Assembly: GCA_965205025.1 (NCBI GenBank)
Contig: CBDBFU010000013.1
Location: 192,001-256,000, forward strand
Source of the DNA: Candidatus Poribacteria bacterium
Lineage (GTDB): Bacteria > Poribacteria > WGA-4E > WGA-3G
Length of the DNA: 64,000 bases
Direction: 5' to 3'
Part shown: piece after piece, positions 9,381-24,312 of the stretch
Numbering within the stretch: the stretch's first letter is position 1
How the letters are laid out: each line of letters starts with the position of its first letter
Notes under the pieces: model-generated
The model's database searches: none
Told to the model about the DNA's origin: nothing
Seen by the model: the letters and a program-made list of their open reading frames with translations, nothing else
Program-made: the position numbers and the translations under genes

Positions 9381-11324
9381 ATGAAAGAAGATGAACAGCT
9401 GAAATCGACCGGAGTCACATGGAAATCTGTTGCGATTACAGTTGTATTGATTCCATTTAATTTTTACTGGATTATAGCGGGTGAAGTTGGTCTTGTCGGT
9501 TATGCTCTAAATACCTACGCTGTTCCATTCTACAATGTCGTCTTTGTCGTTTTTGCATTCACCTTAATCAATCTTGCCGTTCGATATACCTCAAGAATTC
9601 GGCTACTCACCAATGCTGAACTCCTCACAATATACATACTGCTTAGTACTGCTTGTGCCTTTCCATCCATTACCCTGATGACGATCCTCGTCACGACAGT
9701 TGGACATGCCTTCTGGTTCGCAACCCCCGAAAATGAATGGAAACAACTCTTTTGGGACTACTTACCGAGATGGCTTCTGGTTGATGATACCAAAGCATTG
9801 ACAGGATACTATACTGGGGCATCCAATCTCTCTACATTTGAGATCATAAGTAAATGGATGGTTCCAACACTCTCTTGGACACTATTCATCACTGCACTTG
9901 TCCTTGTGATGTTATGTATCAATGTCGTTATACGCAAACAGTGGATTGAACGTGAAAGACTTGCCTATCCTATCACACAGATAGCATTTCATCTTACCCA
10001 TAACACCAAATCCCTATTTTCCAATCGTATTACATGGATAGGATTCGGAATTGCTGCATCAATTGCAATTCTGAATGGATTCAGTTTCTTATACCCAACA
10101 ATTCCGTCATTACCCATAAAACGTATCGGTGGTTGGCGAGGATTTGGACATCTATTTACAGAAAAACCGTGGAATGCCATCGGGGGTATCAGCATGTCCT
10201 ACTACCCATTTGTAATTGGACTTGGACTGTTAATGCCGCTTGATCTATCTTTTTCCAGTTGGTTTTTCTTCATGTTCTATAAAGCACAACTGGTGTTATC
10301 CAGTGCGGCAGGCCTTTCCAGTATTCCCGGTTTCCCATACATTGATCGGCAATGCTTTGGGGCTGCTATAGGAATTTTCATCTCAGTATTAGTGCTTAAT
10401 CTACGTCATATTCGAGGTGTATTCCGAATAGCACGAAACCGTACTGGAGAAGATAATGACGAACCTGTTTCATACAGATTTGCACTATGGGGAATAGCAG
10501 CGGGGCTTGTAGCACTCTTCATTTTTGCCAATCGTATCGGTATGTCTCTATGGTTAATCCCTATCTTTTTTGCTATTTATTTTATCATTGTATTGGTGCT
10601 AACGCGTATGCGTGCCGAACAAGGTTTTCCAGTACATGCAATGGAGAACATGCCAAACCATCATATCCTCATAGACAGTTTCGGTACCCGGATGTTAGGA
10701 ACGAATAATCTCGTTGCCTTTACACTTTTCCGATGGTTCAATCGAAGCTATACCAGCAACCCAATGCCCCATCAGTTGGAAGGATTCAAACTATCAGAAC
10801 GATCAGGCATAGATCCAAAACGCCTATTTTTCTCACTACTCGGAATTTCCGCGTTTGCCTCAATTACGGTATTTGGGGTTATTCTTTATCTTTACTATAC
10901 TTATGGGGCATTGAACATGAGTGGTAGTAGCAGCTGGTCAACAGGATTTGGGGAACGTGTCTTCAGTGGACTCCAAAGGTGGTTATATTATCCTACCGAA
11001 CCGAACTTTTATGCAACGGGTGGTATTGCTTTTGGACTTCTCTTTTCCACACTTCTAATGTTTATGCGTGCAAGATTCTTTTGGTGGCCATTCCACCCAA
11101 TCGGATTTGTCGTTTCAAGTGATTGGGGGATGCGGTATTTGTGGAGTTGTATGTTGGTAAGTTCGATTGTAAAATGGTCTGTTCTGAGAATTAGTGGACC
11201 TCGTGCCTCACAACAATTGGTTATGTTTGCTCTTGGATTGATGTTAGGTGACTTCACGGTTGGTGGTATTTGGAGTCTCATTAGTGTTATCACTCAACAA
11301 CCGATGTATAACTTCTGGCCGTAA
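9381..11324 (+). CDS. DUF6785/DUF6784-type polytopic membrane protein (putative transporter)
   Basis: FATPENEW, RKQWIERERLAYP, MRAEQG, WWPFHPIGF motifs; paralogs at 22345 and 56475. Confidence 0.75.
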   Translation: MKEDEQLKSTGVTWKSVAITVVLIPFNFYWIIAGEVGLVGYALNTYAVPFYNVVFVVFAFTLINLAVRYTSRIRLLTNAELLTIYILLSTACAFPSITLMTILVTTVGHAFWFATPENEWKQLFWDYLPRWLLVDDTKALTGYYTGASNLSTFEIISKWMVPTLSWTLFITALVLVMLCINVVIRKQWIERERLAYPITQIAFHLTHNTKSLFSNRITWIGFGIAASIAILNGFSFLYPTIPSLPIKRIGGWRGFGHLFTEKPWNAIGGISMSYYPFVIGLGLLMPLDLSFSSWFFFMFYKAQLVLSSAAGLSSIPGFPYIDRQCFGAAIGIFISVLVLNLRHIRGVFRIARNRTGEDNDEPVSYRFALWGIAAGLVALFIFANRIGMSLWLIPIFFAIYFIIVLVLTRMRAEQGFPVHAMENMPNHHILIDSFGTRMLGTNNLVAFTLFRWFNRSYTSNPMPHQLEGFKLSERSGIDPKRLFFSLLGISAFASITVFGVILYLYYTYGALNMSGSSSWSTGFGERVFSGLQRWLYYPTEPNFYATGGIAFGLLFSTLLMFMRARFFWWPFHPIGFVVSSDWGMRYLWSCMLVSSIVKWSVLRISGPRASQQLVMFALGLMLGDFTVGGIWSLISVITQQPMYNFWP

Positions 11325-12269: not shown

Positions 12270-13221
12270 ATGCAACCTAAAGAGAATACTTACACTACAA
12301 AAGATCTATCCTCAGAAGAAGTTAAACCATCGTCCATTCACCTTGATGAACGGATGAAATACCGTAAGGTTGATGGTGAATTGCTACAACGCGCGTGGCA
12401 CACCGCACACAAAATTGCAGCCATGCTTTATGAAGATTTCGGAGCATCGCAGGTCGCTGTATTTGGATCGCTTGCCGAAGGATATTGGTTTTCAACGGAA
12501 TCCGATATTGATATTGCTGTCTGGGGAATTCAAGGAGATACGTATCACGATGCTGTATGGGAAACCAGGAACTTTAGTACTGAATTTCGAATCGATCTCG
12601 TCAACTACCACAGTGCAAATGGACGATTTTGTGATCGGATACAAAACCAAGCCAATTCTAATTCAAGCAGAGAAAACTGGTTTAGATATTTCCATAGACA
12701 ACCAAGTCTCCTTTACATTAAAGGAAAATACTTCTGAAGTGAATAGTCGAAAACTCATTGAACGAATAACCGATGAACGCAAAAAATTAGAACAAACTGT
12801 TGAAGAAATTAGGGTGCGCCTCAAAAAAATAGAAATGATATCAGGTGAAGATCTGGAAGATCTTAAAGTTTTGGTTGCAATTCGTCTTCCTGTTTTTTAT
12901 ACGGGATTAGAGAACATATTTAAACGGATCGCTCGTGAAATTGACATGGATCAACCTCAGGGTAGAGATTGGCACAAAGATTTGTTAAATCAAATGGCAT
13001 CATCACACCGTATGCGTCCTGCCGTGATCTCGAGGAAATTAATTACCACTTTGGATCATATATTAAAGTTTCGTCACCGTTTCAGGAACATCTATGTGTT
13101 TGAGTTAGAACTTGAAAGAGTAGTTGAAAATGCACAACGAGTTTCTGATATATTTAAAGAACTCAATGGAGAACTTGGTAGTTTTATCAGGTGGATAGAG
13201 ACACAGACATCAGATAAGTAG
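12270..13221 (+). pseudogene. MNT-HEPN fusion paralog 2, frameshifted near 12650-12660
   Basis: MNT half in ORF 12270-12737 (VFGSL..SDIDI); HEPN half in another frame to 13221 (WHKDLL, FRHRFRNIY); paralogs are single ORFs. Confidence 0.7.
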
Positions 13222-13254
13222 ACTGTAGATCCTATTTTCCAAGGGAACAGTGAT

Positions 13255-14139
13255 ATGCAACAACCAAAAGAAAACACTCCCACTTCAAAAGATCTGTCCC
13301 CAGAAGAGGTAGAACTATCCTCCATCCGCTTTGATGAACGTTTGAAGAACCGTACGGTTGATTGTGAATTGCTACATCGCGCATGGGATACCGCACATCG
13401 GATTGCAGCCATGCTTTATGAAGTTTTTGGGGCAACTCAGGTTGCTGTATTTGGATCACTTGCCGAGGAATACTATTTTTCAAAATGGTCAGATATTGAT
13501 ATTGTTGTGTGGGGTATCCCTAATGACAAGTCCCTACGCGCTTTATCAGTGGCATCAGATATTAGTAGACTCTTTAAGGTAGATCTCGTGATGTTTGAGA
13601 ACTGTGAAAAAAAGTTTCAAGAACGAATAAGTAATCAACTAAGATATATAGAAAAAGGTGTAATATATAACGTGGACCGAAGTGGGTTTATTGAGCGTAT
13701 TGGTGCTGAACGCGATAAAATTGAAACAACAATTGCAAAAATTGACGATAGACTACAAAAAATAAAGACTGCTCCAGACGAATATAAAGAAGAGATTGAA
13801 ACAACAATTGCTAAGAATCTTGTAGATTGTTATCAAGGGATGGAGAATATCTTTAGACGGATAGCTCTTGATGTGGATTTACACTTACCTGATGGAAGCA
13901 TGTGGCATAAAGAATTGCTATCTCAGATGGTTGAACGACATGATGAACGACCATCTGTGATTACTCAAGAAACCTATCTCCGAATACAAGAACTATTGGA
14001 GTTTCGTCATGTTTTCAATAATATCTACGGAGAGGAATTGGTGTACGAAAGAACAGAAAAAATCGGTAAAGAAATTGGTGGATTGTTTCAAAACTTTTAT
14101 AAAGAACTGGACCTGTTCATCGCTTGGTTGGAGAAGTAA
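13255..14139 (+). CDS. MNT-HEPN fusion paralog 3
   Basis: VFGSL..SDIDI; YQGMENIF..IA, WHKELL, FRHVFNNIY. Confidence 0.8.
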   Translation: MQQPKENTPTSKDLSPEEVELSSIRFDERLKNRTVDCELLHRAWDTAHRIAAMLYEVFGATQVAVFGSLAEEYYFSKWSDIDIVVWGIPNDKSLRALSVASDISRLFKVDLVMFENCEKKFQERISNQLRYIEKGVIYNVDRSGFIERIGAERDKIETTIAKIDDRLQKIKTAPDEYKEEIETTIAKNLVDCYQGMENIFRRIALDVDLHLPDGSMWHKELLSQMVERHDERPSVITQETYLRIQELLEFRHVFNNIYGEELVYERTEKIGKEIGGLFQNFYKELDLFIAWLEK

Positions 14140-14156
14140 ACATCAAAAAAGGCGAA

Positions 14157-15309
14157 ATGACTAATCACACACTTCTACACCAAATCACAGACTTCTGCAG
14201 ATTCCTCCGACAGATGGGTGTGAATGTAACAACAACCAATCAGTTAAGTTGGTGTAAGAGTGTAGAACTCATTGATATTGCAGATCGCGAGACGTTTTAT
14301 CATACAGCACGAACAAATCTAATTGTCAACCAAGCAGACTGTGAGAAATTTGATCTCGCCTTTAACCTTTTCTGGCGATTTCCAAGACCCGAATTCCAAT
14401 CGGTTGAAATGGATGGTGAACCTGAGCCTTCAGCATTACAAGATCTATACAATGAAGAAGATATAGAGAACGTACTTGATCAATGGATAGACCACGAGGA
14501 AGAGGACGATGCTGAAGCACAGGAAGACGATCCTATCGCTTATAGTGTTGAAGATGTCTTCACTCAAAAGGATTTCAGTGAGTTCACCATGGAGGATATG
14601 GAAAGGGCACGCGACATTGTTGCAAAATTGGCAGCCATATTAGCAACAAGACTGAGTAGACGAAAAGTTGTTAGCAAAAAGGGAAAGACCATTGATTTCA
14701 GAAAAAGTTGGCGGCAAAGTCTTACTTACGGTGGTGAACCCATCGAACTCAAACGGAAACAAAAAAAGATAAAAAAGACTAAGATCCTACTTCTGTGTGA
14801 TGTAAGTGGTTCTATGGATTGTTATGCCAAATTCCTAATACAATTTATATACGGTATGCAGCAAGAATTGAAAGAAGTTGAGGTGGCAGTTTTTAGTACA
14901 CACCTAACAAACATTACAGGTCTACTCCGTCGAAAGGGTTTGGCAGAAGGTCTAAATGAAGTAGCAAACGCTGTTCCAGACTGGTCGGGTGGTACAAAAA
15001 TAGGGGAAAGCCTATTAGAATTCTATCGACAATTTGCTGCGTCTTTCTCAGCATACCGTACCGTTGTCATCCTCATCAGCGACGGTTGGGATCGTGGAGA
15101 TGCAGATATTACTTCGTCGATCCATGGAAATGATACACCAACATGCATATAAACTGATATGGCTAAATCCACTGCTTGGGAGTGATACCTATCAACCGAT
15201 TTGTAGAGGTATCCGAACTGCAATGCCTTATGTGGACTATTTTCTTCCAGCACATAATTTGGAGAGTTTTAGCACAATTGACAAAGGTTCTAATTCCTCT
15301 CTGGTCTAA
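14157..15309 (+). pseudogene. VWA domain CoxE-like protein, frameshifted near the C-terminus
   Basis: LCDVSGSM MIDAS, WSGGTKIG, ISDGWDRG; continues in another frame as LIWLNPL...RGIRTAMPYVD. Confidence 0.8.
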
Positions 15310-15495
15310 GTAATCCCTCCTATGGTAAACAACAATGAAATAGATAGATACTATTTTGAAGTTGTGGTGTTATTATATACAAGAGCTATAAGAATATCAT
15401 ATATAGAATAGGTACGATTTCCACCCACTACATTTAGAATGTGGATACTGTAATTTTAATTCTTATACCTCATCTTAAAACAAGGAATATTTTCT

Positions 15496-16623
15496 ATGCA
15501 AGTTCAGGCAGCGGTGATGCTCCAACCGGGGCAGATAGAAATCCGCGAATATGACAAACCAACACCGGAAGACGATTCGCTCATACTACAAGTAGACAAA
15601 GTTGGTATCTGTGGTAGTGACAAACACATGTACCTTGGACATACAGCACTTAAATTCCCTGTTATTCCAGGACATGAAGTAGTCGGTACAGTTGCTGAAA
15701 TCGGAAAGGATGCCAACAAAGTTATGAATGTAATGGGTGGTCCTATTAAGACTGGCGACCGAATTACTGTTGTACCCGGTTCAAAGAATTGTGGTAGATG
15801 CTACTACTGCTTACATGTACCAGGACGTCCGACTTTATGTTCAGGACGTACGATCTATGGGTTTAGTAATAGCGAGACTCCACCATACCTGAATGGTGAA
15901 TTTTCTGAATGTACATATATTCACGGGAACTCTTGGGTATATAAGATTCCTGATGATATTCCAGAGGAAATAGCAGTACTTACTGAACCTGTTGCTGTAG
16001 CGACACGTGCTGTTGAGCGTGCTTGTGCCCCCGGGTTTACCACAGATTGGGGATGGCTATAGTATTGGAAGCAGTGTCGCCGTACTCGGATGCGGACCGA
16101 TTGGACTTCTTGTGATTGCAGTCTTAAGAGATAGTGGGGCTGGTACAATTATCGCTACGGACCTTGTTGATAGCCGTTTGGAAATGGCACAGCACATGGG
16201 TGCGGATGTGGTTATTAATGTAGGAGATACTACACCAGAAGAAACGGGTTGAACAAATTCAGGATCTTACAAATGGTGTCGGTGTGGACATAGCGATTGA
16301 ATGTGCAGGTATACCTGCTGTTTTTTCAGAAGCTTTGGATGTTGTCAGACGCGGAGCGAAAGTCATAGAGGTAGGTCCATTATACTGATTCAGGCGATAT
16401 ACAAGTTAGACCTCATCAAATCTGTAACAAAGACCTTGATGTTTGTGGCGTGTGGGCATATCCACAGATCCAATTTCAGACAGCGTTAGATTTCCTTCAA
16501 AGAACACGGACACCCTTACACAAGCTAATTACGCATCGTCTACCCTTAAATCAATTAGAACATGGTATTGATATGCTTGGAAAAGAGGGTGTCTATAAGG
16601 TTGTTATCGAACCACAAACATAA
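15496..16623 (+). pseudogene. zinc-dependent alcohol dehydrogenase (MDR) split by several frameshifts
   Basis: GICGSD, GHE, CGRCYYC in the first frame; GCGPIG in the second; C-terminal part ends at TAA 16621-16623. Confidence 0.8.
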
Positions 16624-16676
16624 TGAACTGCTAAGAATTCCTATGTTTTAAAAAAGTCAACAATTCCTATACATAG

Positions 16677-17664
16677 GTGAAAAATATGAAAAATCGGAAC
16701 TACATACTCAAACTACTATTATTTCTAATCTTAGTATATATCGTTTCTTTTAATACCTCGATTACAATTGCTCAAGATATACCAAAAAAAGGTTCCTCGT
16801 TATTTACAACAATTGAAAACGCAAAAGAGTATATCATAAACAATCAGAATGTAGATGGCGGTTGGCCACTAATACCAGGTGAAGAAAGCGATGTTGAGAT
16901 CACAGCACTTGCTATCTGGTCTCTAATTGATGCGGATTGGGGAACAGGATCAAGTGTCGTTCGTCGCGGTGTCAGATATTTGGAAAGATACCAACGTGAA
17001 GATGGTAGTTGGAATAACAATACTGCTCACACCATTTTTAGTGTTATCGCATTGGCAAAGGGAAAAACAGCACCAGATATACGATTTAGGGGTTTACAAT
17101 GGCTGAAAAAAGCACAAAATCCTAGTGGTAGTTGGGGTAGTGAAAGCAATGATACTGGACATATCCTTTATACAGCAGCATCTCTTGTTGGACTAAAAAA
17201 AACTCGGGTTAACGCAGAGAAATTCCGAGCTTATTCCTTCTGGTATGAAATGGATAGCAGATCCAGAACGGATAAATTTTGATGGTGGATGGACATTACC
17301 CAATGGTACACAGTCAGATATTTATGTGACTTCTTGGGTATTGCAGGCACTATCTCCTGACTACGATCTTGATGAGCAGATTGCATGGATAAAGCAATTC
17401 CAAAATAAGGATGGTGGTTTCGGGAGATATAGAGGGAATTCAAGTGATCCAGAGGTTACTGCTACCGTAATTATGGCACTTGCAGCAAGTGAAGATCCAC
17501 TTAATACACGCCGTATAGCGATTTCTTATTTTACAAAGGCTCAATCTGAAAATGGCGGTTTTATTAGTGATACACCAATAGAACTCAAAACCCCAACCGA
17601 GAACTTACAAACTACCTGTTTTGTATTGATTGCCATTCATGCCAATACAAACAGTGAACAATAA
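16677..17664 (+). pseudogene. secreted prenyltransferase/squalene-cyclase repeat protein, frameshifted near an A-run at ~17195
   Basis: Signal peptide; repeated Q(N/R)xDG(G/S)W/F motifs in both ORFs (16677-17282 and 17245-17664). Confidence 0.75.
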
Positions 17665-17678
17665 AACAGGCATTTCAT

Positions 17679-17723
17679 AGAAAAGGGATGATTCAAGTAT
17701 ATACACTTCAATCATCCCTTTCT
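17679..17723. terminator. bidirectional terminator-like hairpin between convergent genes
   Basis: agaaaagggatgatt...aatcatccctttct. Confidence 0.65.
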
Positions 17724-17774
17724 TTATTTCTAAAACTTGTCTGAGTAAATTTTCAATATCTCTCTAAATATGTC

Positions 17775-19304
17775 CTAAAATTCAACCAGTAATTGTGGAA
17801 TAATCCTTGCACTACGTGTTGGTTTTTCAACGTTATTAATCTGATAGACAATCCTTGCTAATGCTCCTTCGGAGAAATGCCACGTTAAGGCACCACCAAG
17901 GGTTGACCACACCTGATCTTCATCCCCCCGATTGAATGTAAATGTGTTGAACTTTGTTGTGTTTGGATTCCACACATCATACTTCAATCGAACATCTAAT
18001 GTCTCAGACAAAGGCAATTCTGCATGAAGATAATAACCTTCAACAGAAGCATTTCTGTCTTCGGTTGGTATCGGAATATAAAGATACTTCAAGAGTTGTG
18101 TATCTCTACCTCTAACCCATTCAGCAGCAAAGTCAAGACGCCACAACTTGAAACTTGTTGCAAAACCAGCACGCCGTTTATATACTAACGTGGACGGGTT
18201 GACATCACCATTAATAGGATTAAATGGATAACTATTCCCATCAAAATAGGATCCACCAAGCCAAATTCTCTTACCAAAAACTGGCAGTGTCCCGTTTAAA
18301 TGGACAAACACTGGTGGACTGTTATTTCTAATCGGTTTTAAGATACCACCTCCACTTCCGTGTGGACCAATTTGTATGCCTTTAGCCACTGTGCCTTCTG
18401 TGACAGTTCGGAGCGAATCTGGTCCATCCGCAAGCGATACTACATAAGAGACTGGTCCTACAAATCCATTTAGTTGTAATCCACGATCAGAAATGAAACC
18501 GATATTCTTCCTTACCAAATTATATAATGGATTCGCTGCAGCATCCGACTTCGTATCTATACCAAATCCATGACGAAACCTACCTACTTTTAAAGAAGCA
18601 CCCTTTGGAAGGACAGGTAGTCCTGTCAGAATTGCATATACAAAACCGTGGTCATCAGCGACTTGTGTTCCCAAAGGAGAGGTCGTCAACAACTGCTCTC
18701 CTAATACACTCACATGATCCCCAATGCTCGTGGTAACGACAAATTCAGCAACGTGAATTAAGGTGGTTCCCGAATCCCAATTCTCTCTATCAGGGAACAG
18801 ATCTTTCCCACGAGTGATACGCCGTATATCTAACGCACCTCCGAAAACCAGATCTCCGAATGCACCACCCAGAAAATCTGAACCCCCTGTATCCTCTGAG
18901 ACATCAGCATCATCAAAACTAAAGACATTGTCATCATCAAGATCAATATCTTCATCGGATTCAGATAGTTCGTTCGATGTTTCAACATTTTCAGGTGTAC
19001 TGGCTGCATCTCCAGGATAGGAACGAGCAATAAGTTCTTTTATATTGCTAAACCCATCTTTATCAGAATCCATATTTTCAATACGTGTGAATGTAGACAT
19101 GTTCATTCCGTTATGTAAGAATGCTCTACCGTAAGGGTTTGGTGAATCTCCACCCTTCTTTGAAAAATGGCATACATTACATCCACCTGTCCATTTATAT
19201 TTTGTTTTGAACATTTTATAGAATGCTGGGAGAGCGTGGACTGATTGGTCTGCAATTAAGGTACAAAAGAGCACCATCACGCAGATAAATAGTATTTTGC
19301 GCAT
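17775..19304 (-). CDS. monoheme cytochrome c + outer-membrane beta-barrel fusion (Cyc2-like architecture)
   Basis: Signal peptide, ALPAF...CNVCH...NPYGRAF, DSDKDG acidic motif, acidic linker, alternating beta-strand C-terminal domain ending in F. Confidence 0.7.
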   Translation of the reverse strand: MRKILFICVMVLFCTLIADQSVHALPAFYKMFKTKYKWTGGCNVCHFSKKGGDSPNPYGRAFLHNGMNMSTFTRIENMDSDKDGFSNIKELIARSYPGDAASTPENVETSNELSESDEDIDLDDDNVFSFDDADVSEDTGGSDFLGGAFGDLVFGGALDIRRITRGKDLFPDRENWDSGTTLIHVAEFVVTTSIGDHVSVLGEQLLTTSPLGTQVADDHGFVYAILTGLPVLPKGASLKVGRFRHGFGIDTKSDAAANPLYNLVRKNIGFISDRGLQLNGFVGPVSYVVSLADGPDSLRTVTEGTVAKGIQIGPHGSGGGILKPIRNNSPPVFVHLNGTLPVFGKRIWLGGSYFDGNSYPFNPINGDVNPSTLVYKRRAGFATSFKLWRLDFAAEWVRGRDTQLLKYLYIPIPTEDRNASVEGYYLHAELPLSETLDVRLKYDVWNPNTTKFNTFTFNRGDEDQVWSTLGGALTWHFSEGALARIVYQINNVEKPTRSARIIPQLLVEF

Positions 19305-19363
19305 GATTTATTCCTTATATGAAATGAATGCAATGATATTCGAAAATATCCTAAGAACTTGCC

Positions 19364-20341
19364 CTAATACGACTCAATATCAATTTCTTCACCCGTGAAT
19401 CGTATATGTGCTTGATTCACTAATGTCAATATTTGTTCCCACTGTTTACGCGTATCGTCTGTTATACCTGATTCATCAAGGGCATCAGCAAATTCTGTAA
19501 GCATTTTACCGAACTTTTCCTGCATCTCCGTGTATTCTTCTGTCTGATCAGCATTCATAGGTGGCTCAAATTCGGAGATTCCTTTTCCATATAGAACGAG
19601 TTTCTTAGCAGCAGATACTGCTTCTTCCTTCCCTTCACCTTTGTCAAAATAATCTATAATAGCATAATAAGCATCTACCATCAGAATCATAAGTTCCTTT
19701 AAATCCTCAACTTCAGGTATCTCTTCGGTTGGTTCTTCTGGTGTGGGTTTTTCTTCTGCTTCTGGCTTGGGTTTACGCTTCAGAAAGAGGGCATAACTCA
19801 TGACCAGTGTCTTTTTCGGCATTAAAGCAATCGCCTTAGATGCATCTTCTTGTCCCTTAACTGCTTCAACATCCTTTCCAACAGTGAAAGCATCGTCTAT
19901 TCCCTTGTCAACGAACTGCTTAAGAAATTTCTCTGAGGTAATTGACTCTGATTCCTTGTGATCATAAACAGCTACTTTCACAACTTTACCTTTCATGTTA
20001 AGTCCAACAGCCCCATCAATTTTCCCATGTGGTCCCTGCACATCAACGAATAATACCAAACCCATAGGTTTCTTATTCTCACCAATCGATATATAGAAAA
20101 TCGGTTTCAGGTCTTCTTTACGAAGTTTCGTCCCCAAATCTTTCTCAATGGACTTAATCTTGTCTGTTGTAAGCACAACACTTCTCTGAACGAATTTTTT
20201 CGCTTTTGGGAAAATACCTGCGAGTTTTTCACCCGGCCACTCAGTTTCATGCGTAATACCGAGTATCGGGGTGAATACCATCGCAAATGCAAACACAAAT
20301 ATTATACTATTTCGGATAGGAAGGTATTTATTGAATAACAT
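19364..20341 (-). CDS. exported FMN_bind-like domain + four-helix (cytochrome b562-like) domain protein
   Basis: Signal peptide; V.G.HG.I...VG....GKV..V.V..H.E......FLKQF pattern; Pro/Glu linker; helical C-terminal domain with Met near its start and His near its end. Confidence 0.6.
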   Translation of the reverse strand: MLFNKYLPIRNSIIFVFAFAMVFTPILGITHETEWPGEKLAGIFPKAKKFVQRSVVLTTDKIKSIEKDLGTKLRKEDLKPIFYISIGENKKPMGLVLFVDVQGPHGKIDGAVGLNMKGKVVKVAVYDHKESESITSEKFLKQFVDKGIDDAFTVGKDVEAVKGQEDASKAIALMPKKTLVMSYALFLKRKPKPEAEEKPTPEEPTEEIPEVEDLKELMILMVDAYYAIIDYFDKGEGKEEAVSAAKKLVLYGKGISEFEPPMNADQTEEYTEMQEKFGKMLTEFADALDESGITDDTRKQWEQILTLVNQAHIRFTGEEIDIESY

Positions 20342-20401
20342 CTATTCACTCCTTTTGAAGTGTCTGCTGCCGATAGATATTATCGACAGCAGACAGATAA
20401 T

Positions 20402-21412
20402 TTACTCTTCTACTTTTACCATGAATGTAGGAAACAGAATCTGGTCCTTATGTTTTAGTTGCCCAAAAATCTGATAAATCCCTGCTTTCGGAAATGTAGT
20501 CATGAGCATAACGGAAGGTCCGAATTTATCGGGTGTTTCCCCCTGATGTTTATGTCCGGACGTAGGATCTTTTTTCTCCATTTTATGTCCTTTGTGGGAG
20601 ACATCTTTTTTCATTTTGCTATGATCCATATTCATCATCACTGAACCGTGTGTATGTACTATACCATCTAATTCAGTATTTACAATAGCAAAATGCATTG
20701 GAGCATCCAAAAATGGAACAAGATCGGTTATCGGTTTCCCTGCTTGTGAAAAATGATAATCGATATGAACCATCTCTCCTGCTTTAATTTTATCTTGGAC
20801 ATTCATTTTCACTTGATATACTGACGTGCCTTTTCCATCAGTTAAAACAGCCTTAGTATATCGGTCACCACCTTCTTCAGTATAACCGGAAACAGTTTTT
20901 TCTCGACTGAAATCTTCAGAAAGATCTGTCATCTTCTTCTCCCCTACAACATCAACATACAGATATTTCGAATATTCAGCATCTGCTGTCATCACATCCA
21001 GTGCCAATATATATCTACCTGCAGCGGGAAAAGTAAAGTGAACAGTATAGGTTCCTTCAAGTTCTGCCATCATGTCACGCTCATCGAAATCTTCAGGATG
21101 GATATGTCCAAGAATCTGTAGATTCTCACTTACAATTAAAACATGGAGAACCCGATCGTGGTGTATCATAAGATCTGTAAAGGGTTCACCCATTTTATCG
21201 GTGAGATTGAACATTAGAGTTGCTTGCTCACCTGCTTTAATATCTTCTGGTTCAGTGTGTAGACTTACATTCAAGACATCAGTTTTTTCTATCTGATGAG
21301 CACTATGATCTTCATGTTGGGCAGTATAGCCTATATGTACAAAATACAGGACGCTTATGAATATTGCAATAGCAATTCTTGGTGTGTAAAACGTGGAAAA
21401 TAGGGTTTTCAT
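20402..21412 (-). CDS. exported His/Met-rich heavy-metal-binding protein (two related beta-sandwich repeats)
   Basis: HEDHSAH, HHDRVLHVLIVS..GHIHP, PMHFAIV..HTH, FP..G.Y motifs twice, MMNMDH...HKGH; start ATG 21412 after TATGGAGGA. Confidence 0.7.
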   Translation of the reverse strand: MKTLFSTFYTPRIAIAIFISVLYFVHIGYTAQHEDHSAHQIEKTDVLNVSLHTEPEDIKAGEQATLMFNLTDKMGEPFTDLMIHHDRVLHVLIVSENLQILGHIHPEDFDERDMMAELEGTYTVHFTFPAAGRYILALDVMTADAEYSKYLYVDVVGEKKMTDLSEDFSREKTVSGYTEEGGDRYTKAVLTDGKGTSVYQVKMNVQDKIKAGEMVHIDYHFSQAGKPITDLVPFLDAPMHFAIVNTELDGIVHTHGSVMMNMDHSKMKKDVSHKGHKMEKKDPTSGHKHQGETPDKFGPSVMLMTTFPKAGIYQIFGQLKHKDQILFPTFMVKVEE

Positions 21413-21417
21413 TATAT

Positions 21418-21543
21418 TCCTCCATATAAATATATAAATTCTTAAAAAGAGTTTCAAATACTCTATTTATTCCGTGACTATACAATGGTCCGGAATAAAA
21501 ACAGTCAATTAAGATAATATTCTAAGAAAGGGTGTATGGAGGA
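21418..21543 (-). promoter_or_regulatory. putative translational attenuator (anti-SD in RGPPY codons, SD of the next gene, intervening hairpin)
   Basis: mRNA UCCUCCAUA (plus 21535-21543) is the exact complement of SD UAUGGAGGA (plus 21418-21426); hairpin ttattccg...cggaataa at about 21467-21498. Confidence 0.65.
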
Positions 21544-21959
21544 CCGCGACGGGATAGGTTCGAGGTTAATGGTAAGAGAGATAGGTTGTGGGGACTGAAG
21601 GTCTTTAGTTGTTGTTCTTGACCAACCATTACCGATGAATCAAGTAGGACTGAAGCAATTTTTAAGTGTTCATCCGATTGAGGGGTATAGTCAATACGAT
21701 AAGTGATTTCAGGAAGGATCACCTCGAAATTTGTTAAACAGCATGTATTTCCATCTTCTGATGTGCTATTGTTTTCACTTGAAGAATCCGCATCTTTGTT
21801 ATGGCAACAAGATGAATTGGTTTGAATACCATTCATATTTTGAATAAGTTTGCTACCACAAGATGTCTGTTCAACAGCTGCACAGTATAATGGACAAAAG
21901 GAATGAAGACAAACTAATGCCGTAAGTGAAAAGGTCAATAACCAATGTTTTTGGAACAT
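21522..21959 (-). CDS. secreted Cys-rich leader protein with C-terminal RGPP (DUF2946/CutF-like putative arrest peptide)
   Basis: Signal-like N-terminus, CLHSFCPLYC, SCCH, TCCL, ends LSRRGPPYTLS*. Confidence 0.7.
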   Translation of the reverse strand: MFQKHWLLTFSLTALVCLHSFCPLYCAAVEQTSCGSKLIQNMNGIQTNSSCCHNKDADSSSENNSTSEDGNTCCLTNFEVILPEITYRIDYTPQSDEHLKIASVLLDSSVMVGQEQQLKTFSPHNLSLLPLTSNLSRRGPPYTLS

Positions 21960-22114
21960 TGCTATTATCTCCGTTGTTTTAATGGAAATAGTTCGTGAAT
22001 TACACTTCTATGACATTATACACCATAATTCAAGAATGTTGCATTAAAATAACACAAAGCTCATTATTTATTTTGAGTAATTCCATTTCTAATTGAAAAT
22101 GTCTCTTTTTTGTA

Positions 22115-22342
22115 CCACAAACTTTATGAGGATTAAGTTTTAAATTCGGCAATTCTCATTATTCCAAACCCTGTAGGTTCGGTTTCCTAACCACGGGGAA
22201 TGCTAAATAGCATTCATACCGTTGATTCGAATTTCCTATCACATTACCGAATTATTATTTTAATCTTCATTCAGTTTGTGTCCTGAAAAATGACTACCAT
22301 AATAACCACCTAATGAGACAATAATTTATAGAAATGGTATAA
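22115..22342. repeat. nested MITE-like palindromic element containing a REP and the ~34-nt element
   Basis: cacaaact..atgaggattaa...ttaatcttcat..agtttgtg; same layout at 24347-24592. Confidence 0.75.
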
Positions 22343-22344
22343 TA

Positions 22345-24312
22345 TCAGCGTGGTAATGCAAAATAACCAATCCCAGTGAAAAACCCAACAAACATCCAAA
22401 TACCTACCATCACATACTCCCCAAAAATCAGACCAAATGCAATAGGACGGATTTTACGGTAAGTCAGGGGTCCACCAAACTTAAGTGTAATATATTTAAT
22501 CATCCACCCTATAAGGACAGATGACCATAAATGAAAAGCAGGATATGTTGCGCCTAATAAATACCCAATTGGGTGTAATGACCACCAAACAAAACTTTGA
22601 CGCATCCATAGCATGAAACCCGTAAAACCTGCGCCAGCAATCATACTATAAACCTCACCCCAATTTGTTTCTACAGGAAATTGGATGAGCTTATTCATCC
22701 GATTGAAATAACCGCGAGGTGCATTGATAAATGACCAATTCTGTAGAAACAATCCTCCTTTGTTATACACCAATGTCAATGATGCATAAACTGATACAAC
22801 AAGAGCAACCATAATTGAAACACCCAGTATCGGAACAACTTTGCGCCGCATCAATCCCACTTCATCCGCAGCTTTGAAACTGTGCAGAAAGTTCGGCATC
22901 ATGAATTCTCCCCAATCCCGGAGAAATGTTCGTTGAAAACTGAGAACAGCCAAACTCTTTTGTCCTATTGCCCCCGAACCAAGTGTATAGGTAATGTAAT
23001 CAGAAGGAAAGAATGGCGCTTGTACAAGCAACAAACCACCATTGACTACCATCCATGATAAGACAACAGAAGTTACAAAGATAGAAAGCATCGTTATGAT
23101 TGCTACCCATGTTTTGATTCCTGCGATGACTAAGAACGTAACAAGGATGACAAATCCGAAGATGAATCCGAAAAAAGCGATACGATATGAAAGTGGTTCA
23201 TTGCTATCATCCACTAAATGTCTATTTTCAATACTCTTCCCGTTGTACTTAACCATACCAAATGCTCTTTTTATTATGGATAGTATATGTTCACGTCCAC
23301 CCCAGAAAACAGCAGGAACAAAAATAAGATAGCCACCCATTACTTGACGACTACAACTTATCCACGGTCCAATGCCTACACCTGTTACATTCATAATAAT
23401 ATATTGAAGTTTAAAAAAGAGAAAGAAAAACCAAAGACTGAAAGACACTTCCAATGTAAGCAATGCAGCTACACCGATTACTGAAAAATAGATCGCAATA
23501 TTCATCCCTGGCCACATACCCAGTGTATGCCACGGTTTTTCAGTAAATGCGCGATGAATCTCAAAGATCATTGGAATCCGAGGCACCATTGGGAAATGTG
23601 CATGGAGTCCGTTGAGGAAGTGAATCACAAGCGGTAAAACCATACCTACCCATAATAACTTATTCTTAAAAAATGAGTTTAGGAGTGATCCACTTGCTGG
23701 TTCTGCTGCTAATTGTATAGGAATCTGGATGAGTGGAAAGGAAAACCTTTCACGTTCTACCCACTGCTTGCGAAGAATGGCTGATAGACAGATTATCGTG
23801 AAATAGAATACAACAACAAATAATCCCCAGACTAAGAGAGGATTAATCCAAGAGACCCAAGGAATATTACCACCTGGAGATAGTCCTTCATAGAAATCGG
23901 TTACGGCTTGTGTATCCGTAACGACTAACCAGTCTGGGATCTGTGGTTGGAGTGTTTCTGCCCAATCGTTCACTGGTGTTGTGAAATAACGAAGTGCTAC
24001 AAGGCAAGGGATAAGGAACTGTAACAGTCCCATGGATGGAATACCAACAGCAACAATCAGCATCATCCAAATTACAGTTAATTCGAGTGATGTGAATGAA
24101 AGTCGACGACTCCATCTCAAGAAACGTAAAGGAAGGTTGACAATGAAAACAAGTAGGAGTAGACCTAAAATTGAGCCAACTGGAAGGTGATTACCTGCCA
24201 GTCTCGAATTCTCTAAGAAATAGTTATTGTAGGGTGAGATTGCACAAATTCCACCTACTAATAGCAATCCTACAAGGATAGCAGAAATACGAATCTTTGG
24301 GTGGACAGGCAT
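22345..24312 (-). CDS. DUF6785/DUF6784-type membrane protein paralog
   Basis: RKQWVERERFSFP, FTEKPW, WWSLHPIGY. Confidence 0.75.
   Translation of the reverse strand: MPVHPKIRISAILVGLLLVGGICAISPYNNYFLENSRLAGNHLPVGSILGLLLLVFIVNLPLRFLRWSRRLSFTSLELTVIWMMLIVAVGIPSMGLLQFLIPCLVALRYFTTPVNDWAETLQPQIPDWLVVTDTQAVTDFYEGLSPGGNIPWVSWINPLLVWGLFVVVFYFTIICLSAILRKQWVERERFSFPLIQIPIQLAAEPASGSLLNSFFKNKLLWVGMVLPLVIHFLNGLHAHFPMVPRIPMIFEIHRAFTEKPWHTLGMWPGMNIAIYFSVIGVAALLTLEVSFSLWFFFLFFKLQYIIMNVTGVGIGPWISCSRQVMGGYLIFVPAVFWGGREHILSIIKRAFGMVKYNGKSIENRHLVDDSNEPLSYRIAFFGFIFGFVILVTFLVIAGIKTWVAIITMLSIFVTSVVLSWMVVNGGLLLVQAPFFPSDYITYTLGSGAIGQKSLAVLSFQRTFLRDWGEFMMPNFLHSFKAADEVGLMRRKVVPILGVSIMVALVVSVYASLTLVYNKGGLFLQNWSFINAPRGYFNRMNKLIQFPVETNWGEVYSMIAGAGFTGFMLWMRQSFVWWSLHPIGYLLGATYPAFHLWSSVLIGWMIKYITLKFGGPLTYRKIRPIAFGLIFGEYVMVGIWMFVGFFTGIGYFALPR

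Follow-up and report, generated by a model that had tools for sequence, protein, structure and literature searches.

In a 64,000-nucleotide window from the genome of a Candidatus Poribacteria bacterium, a sponge-symbiont bacterium, a candidate operon of four genes on the minus strand (17775–21959) combines a leader peptide of the known CutF-like kind with three downstream genes of no described kind. We give even chances to the reading that these genes form an envelope module, induced by copper, that rids the periplasm of copper or detoxifies it there and has a link to the respiratory chain through a Rieske/cytochrome b complex. An earlier note on this DNA, made from its letters, had proposed a metal-responsive (copper or iron) electron conduit across the envelope, and it did not recognise the combination as a described system; our literature search, which covered mainly abstracts together with PMC10654088 and left most subscription journals outside its coverage, likewise yielded no described system that matches the regulated module. 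The genes, given here as open reading frames (ORFs), and the hairpin that follows them are:

21522–21959, minus strand: ORF1, a 145-residue exported, Cys-rich leader with an RGPP end, a putative CutF-like arrest peptide
20402–21412, minus strand: ORF2, 336 residues from an ATG behind a GGAGGA site
19364–20341, minus strand: ORF3, 325 residues, an RnfG-like domain plus a b562-like bundle
17775–19304, minus strand: ORF4, 509 residues, a monohaem c domain plus a porin
17679–17725, no strand assigned: a terminator-like hairpin with a U-tract (fold z -3.81), between the operon and a convergent gene

The four ORFs are co-oriented, with gaps of 109, 60 and 59 nt from ORF1 to ORF4; a Shine-Dalgarno (SD)-like site precedes each of them, and all four proteins begin with a hydrophobic N-terminus, in which we read signal peptides from the sequence alone. 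A TTG start at 21457, given by the ORF lister, would make ORF2 351 residues long. The picture of four co-oriented exported proteins closed by a terminator, as first noted, is thus borne out by the ORF calls, the N-termini and the hairpin, the last of which is absent from the terminator list of our pattern scan. A promoter scan returned 23 sites where 23.7 were expected, so that no promoter is claimed, and Rfam has no match within 17000–23000. In comparisons of coordinates, ORF1 to ORF4 are adjacent and in the same order in 34 of 36 genomes of the same genus (hereafter congeners), which places the block beyond chance and answers in the affirmative the conservation check that the earlier note had proposed. 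In one of the two exceptions (G029) a Cus-type cassette replaces ORF2 and the porin is broken; the other is taken up below. A subclade carries an additional His-rich MetA-type barrel behind the leader, and an orphan homologue (52%) of the His-rich barrel found behind the leader in other family members lies at G000:C4:81359-82219, G000 being the genome that bears the operon. Paralogues of the four genes were not found in G000 beyond two distant barrels.

The leader carries eight Cys residues (CPxxC at 22–26, C34, and CC pairs at 51–52 and 73–74), with RGPP at 138–141. RGPP ends 38 of the 39 distinct small ORFs found upstream of ORF2 homologues, which supports the arrest-peptide assignment made in the earlier note; the lone remaining case is a wrongly picked ORF, and the true leader at that locus has RGPP. 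The Cys residues and R-x-P-P are kept in 40–44 of 44 aligned rows, where overall identity falls to 25–45%. CutF-like upstream ORFs have been collected by broad filters (fewer than 150 residues, PP in the last 15 residues, a signal peptide, and a co-oriented gene within 1000 nt; PMC9973294), RGPP and RAPP leaders are frequent upstream of copper genes (PMC12992588), and in CutF a stalled ribosome frees the downstream SD (PMC9973294; 10.1101/2025.02.05.636593). ORF1 falls within these filters at 145 residues, with PP at 140–141, a gap of 109 nt and a signal peptide as read from the sequence. Like the leaders of CutF-CutO in Rhodobacter capsulatus and CruR in Bordetella pertussis, it is short and exported, has a CxxxC and a Pro-rich R[AG]PP end, is followed by an SD that a predicted stem would hide, and has copper genes behind it in relatives. 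Unlike DUF2946 proteins it has no PF11162 match at E<=1 (three homologues have none at E<=0.1) and bears two extra CC pairs; its CPxxC ends 111 residues and its last CC 63 residues before RGPP, compared with about 45 residues between CXXC and RAPP in DUF2946 (PMC9426467). No Pfam or NCBIfam model scores above cut-off for ORF1. The suggestion of a DUF2946-type leader therefore stands in the broad CutF-like sense and falls as Pfam membership. The word 'Poribacteria' is absent from the searched supplements of PMC12992588 (all but one file) and from three small text files of PMC9973294, a set that perhaps does not include the File S1 list, so the leader may be listed there.

How the leader could control translation is suggested by two segments:

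21535–21545, minus strand: anti-SD, made up of the Gly-Pro-Pro codons within RGPP (whose four codons lie at 21537–21548)
21418–21426, minus strand: SD region of ORF2, predicted to pair with the RGPP codons over the 109-nt spacer (fold z -2.66)

The same pairing register was counted in 44 of 53 leaders; in the other 9 the counting rule used located no SD. The four C residues of Pro-Pro that pair with GGAGG are forced by the genetic code and were excluded as evidence, leaving only the wobble base and the flanks. The first Pro codon of RGPP is CCT in 48 of 53 leaders, compared with 691 of 2786 (25%) of the Pro-Pro pairs in the genome, and at the second Pro all four codons are in use. Flanking pairs vary on both sides at some positions (e.g. 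22 A-U and 10 U-A), in flanks that are AT-rich, are paired in only 25–34 of 44 leaders, and come from genomes that are kin. Stalling at RGPP would place the ribosome over the anti-SD and so free the SD of ORF2. The arrest codons thus appear to form the anti-SD themselves, a difference from CutF and CruR, and stalling should switch translation on, as in CutF. We consider it quite likely that copper, bound by the Cys pairs of the exported nascent leader, would hold the ribosome at RGPP and start translation of ORF2 in this way. A second small ORF with Cys/His motifs and a RAPP end is present at G000:C13:44295-44654.

The connection to copper comes in large part from what else stands behind this leader. 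The distributions of the porin and of an alternative pump were counted in one draw of 151 genomes, 99 of them in the family of the window. The porin occurs in 54 of the 99 and in no other family, and a Cus-type resistance-nodulation-division (RND) pump in 41 of the 99; in genus g9 the porin is found in 14 of 57 genomes, the Cus-type RND in 39 of 57, and both together in 0 of 57. Only G004 in the family has both, and its second leader copy and Cus-type RND lie on another contig (G004:C42:41647-51394). In all four porin-less g9 regions with the leader in view, and likewise in G029, the leader heads a YHS-TolC-TolC-CusB-CusA cassette, and in sister families a homologous RAPP leader heads genes for DUF3347, a TolC-like protein and a Tat (twin-arginine translocation) multicopper oxidase. 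A close orthologue of that oxidase is present in 0 of 36 congeners and in 16 of 24 other members of the order (one partial); weak matches in 13 of the 36 congeners (~30% identity) belong to a different and shorter protein and were left out of the orthologue count. G000 itself has a CopA-type ATPase, and neither that oxidase nor that RND was found in it. The swapped RND has three Met-containing segments that G000's own heavy-metal RND does not have, and which we take to match E. coli CusA; NCBIfam does not separate CusA from CzcA. The G000 pump belongs to a run of a CzcI-like small gene, TolC, a membrane-fusion protein and the RND (G000:C22:2156-9349), has His in place of the Met segments, and is probably for divalent metals. 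Because the operon is exchanged with efflux and oxidase cassettes, it appears to fill the slot of a periplasmic copper defence. It shares this place behind the same leader, and presumably the same periplasmic copper problem, with CusCBA and CueO/CopA-type multicopper oxidases, but has no sequence or fold relation to them and neither an RND pump nor a cupredoxin domain. Of the two metals first suggested, copper is the one that these neighbourhoods (and those of the porin elsewhere) support, and iron is not; between uptake and detoxification, which the earlier note had left open, the swaps favour detoxification.

Although small, with 37 representatives at E<=1e-10, the porin family spans Bdellovibrionota, Myxococcota, Nitrospirota, Margulisbacteria and Omnitrophota; a plasmid collection held no match to a porin homologue. 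We collected 44 distinct porin loci outside Poribacteria and used the 25 that are at least 10 kb long for counts of the module. The haem domain and an RnfG-like protein are present in 25/25, a His-rich membrane protein (Aq_1264-type by the protein atlas) in 22/25, and a second barrel in 9/25. A copper-type gene is found in 17/25, as against 2.8% of random G000 windows (the script counted 18/25, from which L130 was dropped because its RND is multidrug-type), and the neighbours include exporters and CsoR-family repressors. In these phyla the haem domain is usually fused to a second RnfG-like domain, and the b562-like bundle is absent from the module; in Poribacteria and at two other loci (L141 and L148) the haem domain is instead joined to the porin, and no His-rich membrane protein lies in the locus. 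At one locus (L098) a single run comprises the porin, adaptors, Rieske and cytochrome b. Neither G000 nor families f1–f3 yielded the His-rich membrane protein. The partial matches in family f4 (7/7) represent another form of it that contains a CxxCH, and its neighbours are unrelated genes in the three loci read (L164, L166 and L167, where an Aq_1264-type membrane protein has an inserted CxxCH); f4 is without ORF3 and the seven-helix cytochrome b.

ORF2 is rich in His and Met (22 and 19 residues), as first described, and consists of two YtkA-like halves, with a match to the YtkA-like family PF13115 above the gathering score (27.4 vs 25.9 bits). Its H85, H90, H103, H105, H240, H253 and H255 are kept in 53/53 aligned homologues, which are mostly kin, and a sequence search found no solved relative. 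The protein is present in 10/10 porin-bearing and 0/20 porin-less family members tested. It is a probable periplasmic copper binder.

ORF3 is composed of two domains:

19778–20251, minus strand: N-domain, residues 31–188, RnfG/NqrC-like fold, putative docking adaptor
20249–20251, minus strand: His31, the predicted mature N-terminus
19388–19714, minus strand: C-domain, residues 210–318, cytochrome b562/c'-like four-helix bundle without CxxCH

The predicted structure of the N-domain matches RnfG (Z 15.3, root-mean-square deviation [rmsd] 4.2, 142 residues aligned), and the FMN_bind model PF04205 scores just above its cut-off. Flavinylated FMN_bind domains carry the motif [ST]GA[ST], whose Thr is flavinylated. 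In ORF3 this Thr is replaced by Glu (GATITSKAV of RnfG aligns with GAEEASKAV of the profile) and the motif occurs in 0 rows of a 37-row alignment, so we reject covalent FMN binding; of the earlier description of ORF3 as FMN-bind-like and b562-like, both folds stand and the flavin does not. Fold and weak sequence likeness are what the domain shares with RnfG and NqrC. Unlike them it is probably signal-cleaved with a His at its new N-terminus, carries a b562-like bundle or a c haem domain as its fusion partner, and has no rnf/nqr or apbE genes in the operon or among the listed recurring neighbours. The predicted position-1 His tracks the porin: it is found wherever the porin is present (all 69 congener records, duplicates included; 25/25 other-phylum records; 10/10 porin-bearing g9) and mostly lost without it (3/18 porin-less family members, 0/8 sister-family proteins, and Arg in G029).

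A complex model of the ORF3 N-domain with the porin scored 0.66, compared with 0.00 for the best control; 116 of 157 solved complexes and 2 of 215 mismatched pairs reach that mark, counts that hold roughly here because our pair was run with its own alignments. The runs share at least 85% of contacts, with partner pLDDT (a measure of model confidence) of at least 87. In the model the N-domain caps the end of the barrel that bears the N- and C-termini, residues 30–35 form part of the interface, and its best contacts are between ORF3 residues 186–188 and F128-S129-F130 in the porin linker. An acidic FxF-type motif is present in 27/29 porin linkers (background 10%) and, by pattern, in 17/19 N-termini of the membrane protein (background 18%), one match lying off the aligned site; the motif site itself is aligned in all 19 membrane-protein rows. 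The C-terminal bundle matches cytochrome c' (Z 13.4, rmsd 2.2, 108 aligned, near the level common to helical bundles) and a cytochrome b562-like structure (template-modelling score by target 0.78, rmsd 2.4, from the predicted structure). As in these cytochromes, four helices carry an invariant Met near the start and a His near the end (M218, M221 and H312 in 151/151 sequences), which are candidate haem ligands. ORF3 has no Cys and hence no CxxCH, so that the C-terminal CxxCH of cytochrome c' is missing. In one genome (G037, L067:5972-7393) the ORF3 orthologue has an insert of about 150 residues between the domains that resembles a protein at G000:C2:294647-295108.

What the bundle is for is suggested by the relatives of ORF3. 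In eight sister loci read, the ORF3 orthologue precedes Rieske and cytochrome b genes in 6/8 and a Rieske gene alone in 2/8, and in the loci read no c1 gene is adjacent to these sister-family genes. Tallies by family match, at 36/36, 9/9, 8/8 and 0/7 for ORF3 and 34/36, 9/9, 8/8 and 0/7 for cytochrome b. The cytochrome b, with seven predicted helices, carries an acidic tail with VF[DE]F at its end (9/9 by a related pattern); VF[DE]F ends 18/19 further cytochrome b tails as against 4/3700 G000 proteins, and a pattern written afterwards found two proteins in G000, the porin linker and the cytochrome b tail. The G000 genes themselves (G000:C30:8619-10253, Rieske and seven-helix cytochrome b) have no adjacent c1 gene and an acidic tail with the tether motif. 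By analogy with the topology of b6f, the tail would be periplasmic. In G071 (L199:7315-8820) the cytochrome b is fused to a b562-like bundle, which follows its seventh membrane helix, and has neither adaptor nor tail motif. The bundle is thus placed as are c-subunits of Rieske/cytochrome b complexes, of which Bacillus QcrC is an example; it differs from them, and from cytochromes b562 and c', in having no CxxCH, in being normally attached, on our reading, by a tether-adaptor pair and not covalently, and in being shared with an outer-membrane porin. Taking together the sister loci, the matching tallies, the tail motif, the G071 fusion and the conservation of the bundle, we consider ORF3 most likely to be an electron-carrying partner of the Rieske/cytochrome b complex that also caps the porin.

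The porin partner, ORF4, is divided as follows:

18993–19232, minus strand: monohaem c domain, residues 25–104, with mature N-terminal Leu-Pro and an acidic Ca-type loop
19167–19181, minus strand: CxxCH, residues 42–46
18912–18923, minus strand: acidic FSFD tether in the linker, residues 128–131, with the lowest-error contacts of the complex model
17775–18860, minus strand: porin domain, residues 149–509, a 16-strand OprP-like barrel

The predicted barrel (pLDDT 70.7) matches OprP/OprO with Z 24.1 and rmsd 4.4 over 317 aligned residues, and H184, E187, D218 and H219 of the porin are kept in 22–23 of 24 rows from outside Poribacteria. The haem domain is modelled with low confidence (pLDDT about 50–68), matches the diheme_GEGP model below cut-off, and has no solved relative by sequence, showing just a weak EF-hand loop likeness (E 0.12). 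No Pfam or NCBIfam model scores above cut-off for ORF4, and the protein atlas places it in unnamed clusters only. All cytochrome domains with their N-terminal part in the alignment retain CxxCH. Since no Met or second His is conserved and the Leu-Pro at the mature N-terminus is, the N-terminal amine may be the sixth haem ligand, by analogy with cytochrome f, where the N-terminal amine ligates the haem. The comparison with Cyc2 made in the earlier note holds at the level of architecture and not beyond it. Cyc2 is described as having one N-terminal CxxCH, a 16-strand porin and the motif AXPXFAR[Q/K][T/Y] (10.1101/228056), and an electron paramagnetic resonance study assigns two axial ligands to the haem of its protein (PMC13692758). 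ORF4 likewise has a single N-terminal CxxCH, xP at the mature N-terminus and a fused 16-strand OprP-like barrel in more than 365 residues. Unlike Cyc2, it has a 55-residue acidic linker with a docking tether and a copper-island context, its haem domain is split from the porin in most phyla, the PXFAR[QK][TY] motif (5 residues before CxxCH) occurs in 0/86 cytochrome domains, and no PXL follows 4 residues after CxxCH; these features speak against identity with Cyc2. A second cytochrome-porin in G000 (L227, G000:C7:110178-111395) has two CxxCH, the first with Cyc2-like spacing from P-x-F and without the strict motif.

Put together, these parts suggest the following mechanism. Once the leader has switched on translation, the His/Met clusters of ORF2 would probably collect Cu(I). 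The RnfG-like domain of ORF3 is likely to act as a peptide-docking adaptor that, as modelled, holds the porin by its acidic FxF tether, caps the periplasmic mouth and places His31 there, facing the pore with its conserved His, Asp and Glu residues (their orientation to the lumen is putative). From the genomic pattern we also expect this domain to grip the VF[DE]F tail of the c1-less cytochrome b, in which case the bundle would stand in for cytochrome c1. That ORF3 shuttles electrons between the Rieske/cytochrome b complex and the haem c of the porin, changing the redox state of copper at the pore, we put slightly short of even chances. As to direction, oxidation of Cu(I) with exit of Cu(II) is doubtful, and yet favoured over reduction of Cu(II), which we think quite improbable. 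The envelope electron conduit of the earlier note thus has a plausible path, by way of a link from ORF3 to a Rieske/cytochrome b pair encoded elsewhere that the note did not contain. In a broader and more tentative form, the module could represent a third periplasmic copper defence beside Cus and multicopper oxidases: a haem-based machine for copper redox chemistry that works at an outer-membrane pore without oxygen, is connected to the quinone pool, is used in at least five phyla and is switched on by a leader whose arrest codons double as the anti-SD. Here the de-flavinated RnfG-like domain would read an acidic FxF tether on partners in both membranes, be it a porin, a cytochrome b lacking c1 or a His-rich membrane protein of the Aq_1264 type.

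Several observations weigh against a copper module wired to the respiratory chain. In the second exception among the congeners (G007) the leader was not found and the other three genes are kept. The swaps perhaps reflect few evolutionary events among kin, so that their counts are not independent; 8/25 long loci in other phyla have no classified copper gene, and there the module stands beside CopA, Cus and oxidases, not replacing them. Signal cleavage ahead of His31 is read only from the protein sequence. The haem domain (residues 25–104) lies outside the modelled interface, whose lowest-error contacts involve barrel turns and the tether; we defined the tether motifs with the sequences already in view, and an initial, narrower pattern for cytochrome b tails fitted only 7/16 of them. 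In the genus of the window the Rieske/cytochrome b genes are unlinked to the operon, and the bundle and its link to cytochrome b occur in Poribacteria only, including genomes that have lost the porin, so that the two roles of ORF3 could be separate. Finally, a Rieske/cytochrome b complex normally gives electrons out, which fits reduction of copper better than its oxidation.

Some of these points feed an account without redox coupling, in which copper is sequestered and leaves passively, handed by ORF2 and His31 to a His-lined pore, with the bundle only a substitute for c1, the adaptor shared by history and the haem c domain a plug or sensor. The persistence of ORF3 with its bundle in 19/20 porin-less family genomes tested (once as a cytochrome b fusion), the bundle-less module of other phyla and the place of the haem domain in the model all fit it. 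Against it stand the retention of CxxCH throughout the aligned cytochrome domains and of the domain beside the porin in every long locus, the fusion of the haem domain to a second adaptor where it is not part of the porin, together with the presence there of a His-rich membrane protein with the same tether, which looks like a second inner-membrane route, and the single run of L098; we judge this account unlikely, if not markedly so. Reductive import under copper shortage would instead have the leader stall without copper, with Cu(II) entering the pore, being reduced by quinol and loaded by ORF2 into a haem-copper oxidase. The electron direction just mentioned suits it, G000 encodes a haem-copper oxidase cluster (as read from sequences), and CruR represses an import operon when copper is present (PMC9426467). 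Efflux and oxidase cassettes, which would be needed in excess copper, stand behind homologous leaders that have the same anti-SD, and in other phyla the porin is accompanied by exporters and CsoR-family repressors, making import a poor candidate.

The module might also serve another soft metal (Ag, Ni, Co or Zn), or several, and merely share copper islands. Some CutF-like leaders do head Ni/Co genes (PMC9973294), HupE/UreJ genes lie near four of the loci, and the NCBIfam models leave CusA and CzcA together. Ni and Co are, however, tied to His-only leaders (PMC9973294), whereas ORF1 is Cys-rich; neighbouring ATPases pass the copper-translocating cut-off in 3/3 scanned, and the Met segments of the swapped RND, presumably CusA-like, are missing from the heavy-metal RND of G000. 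We regard another metal as distinctly improbable. Least credible, and very unlikely in our estimate, is an outer-membrane Fe(II) oxidase or general extracellular electron conduit like Cyc2, which shares the signal peptide, single CxxCH and OprP-like barrel (10.1101/228056): the Cyc2 sequence signatures are missing, most other phyla keep the haem domain unfused from the porin, and the unit is exchanged for copper efflux genes.

Around the operon, neighbours at 14124–17664 look split or frameshifted relative to homologues (vWA-like, Zn-dehydrogenase and prenyltransferase-like), possibly through assembly errors, and tandem nucleotidyltransferase/HEPN-like ORFs were read at 12270–14139. The region is flanked by two related membrane proteins, at 9381–11324 and 22345–24312, the latter a DUF6785/DUF6784 protein.

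If the copper module linked to the respiratory chain is real, bacteria would have a further, new means of defence against copper, and four families without a name, found repeatedly in the copper islands of Bdellovibrionota, Myxococcota, Nitrospirota, Margulisbacteria and Poribacteria, would gain functions. The docking code of adaptor and FxF tether would explain how a c1-less Rieske/cytochrome b pair holds its electron acceptor, and how redox parts of the inner and outer membranes are joined across the periplasm. A monohaem cytochrome-porin fusion would, taken alone, be no proof of an iron oxidase.

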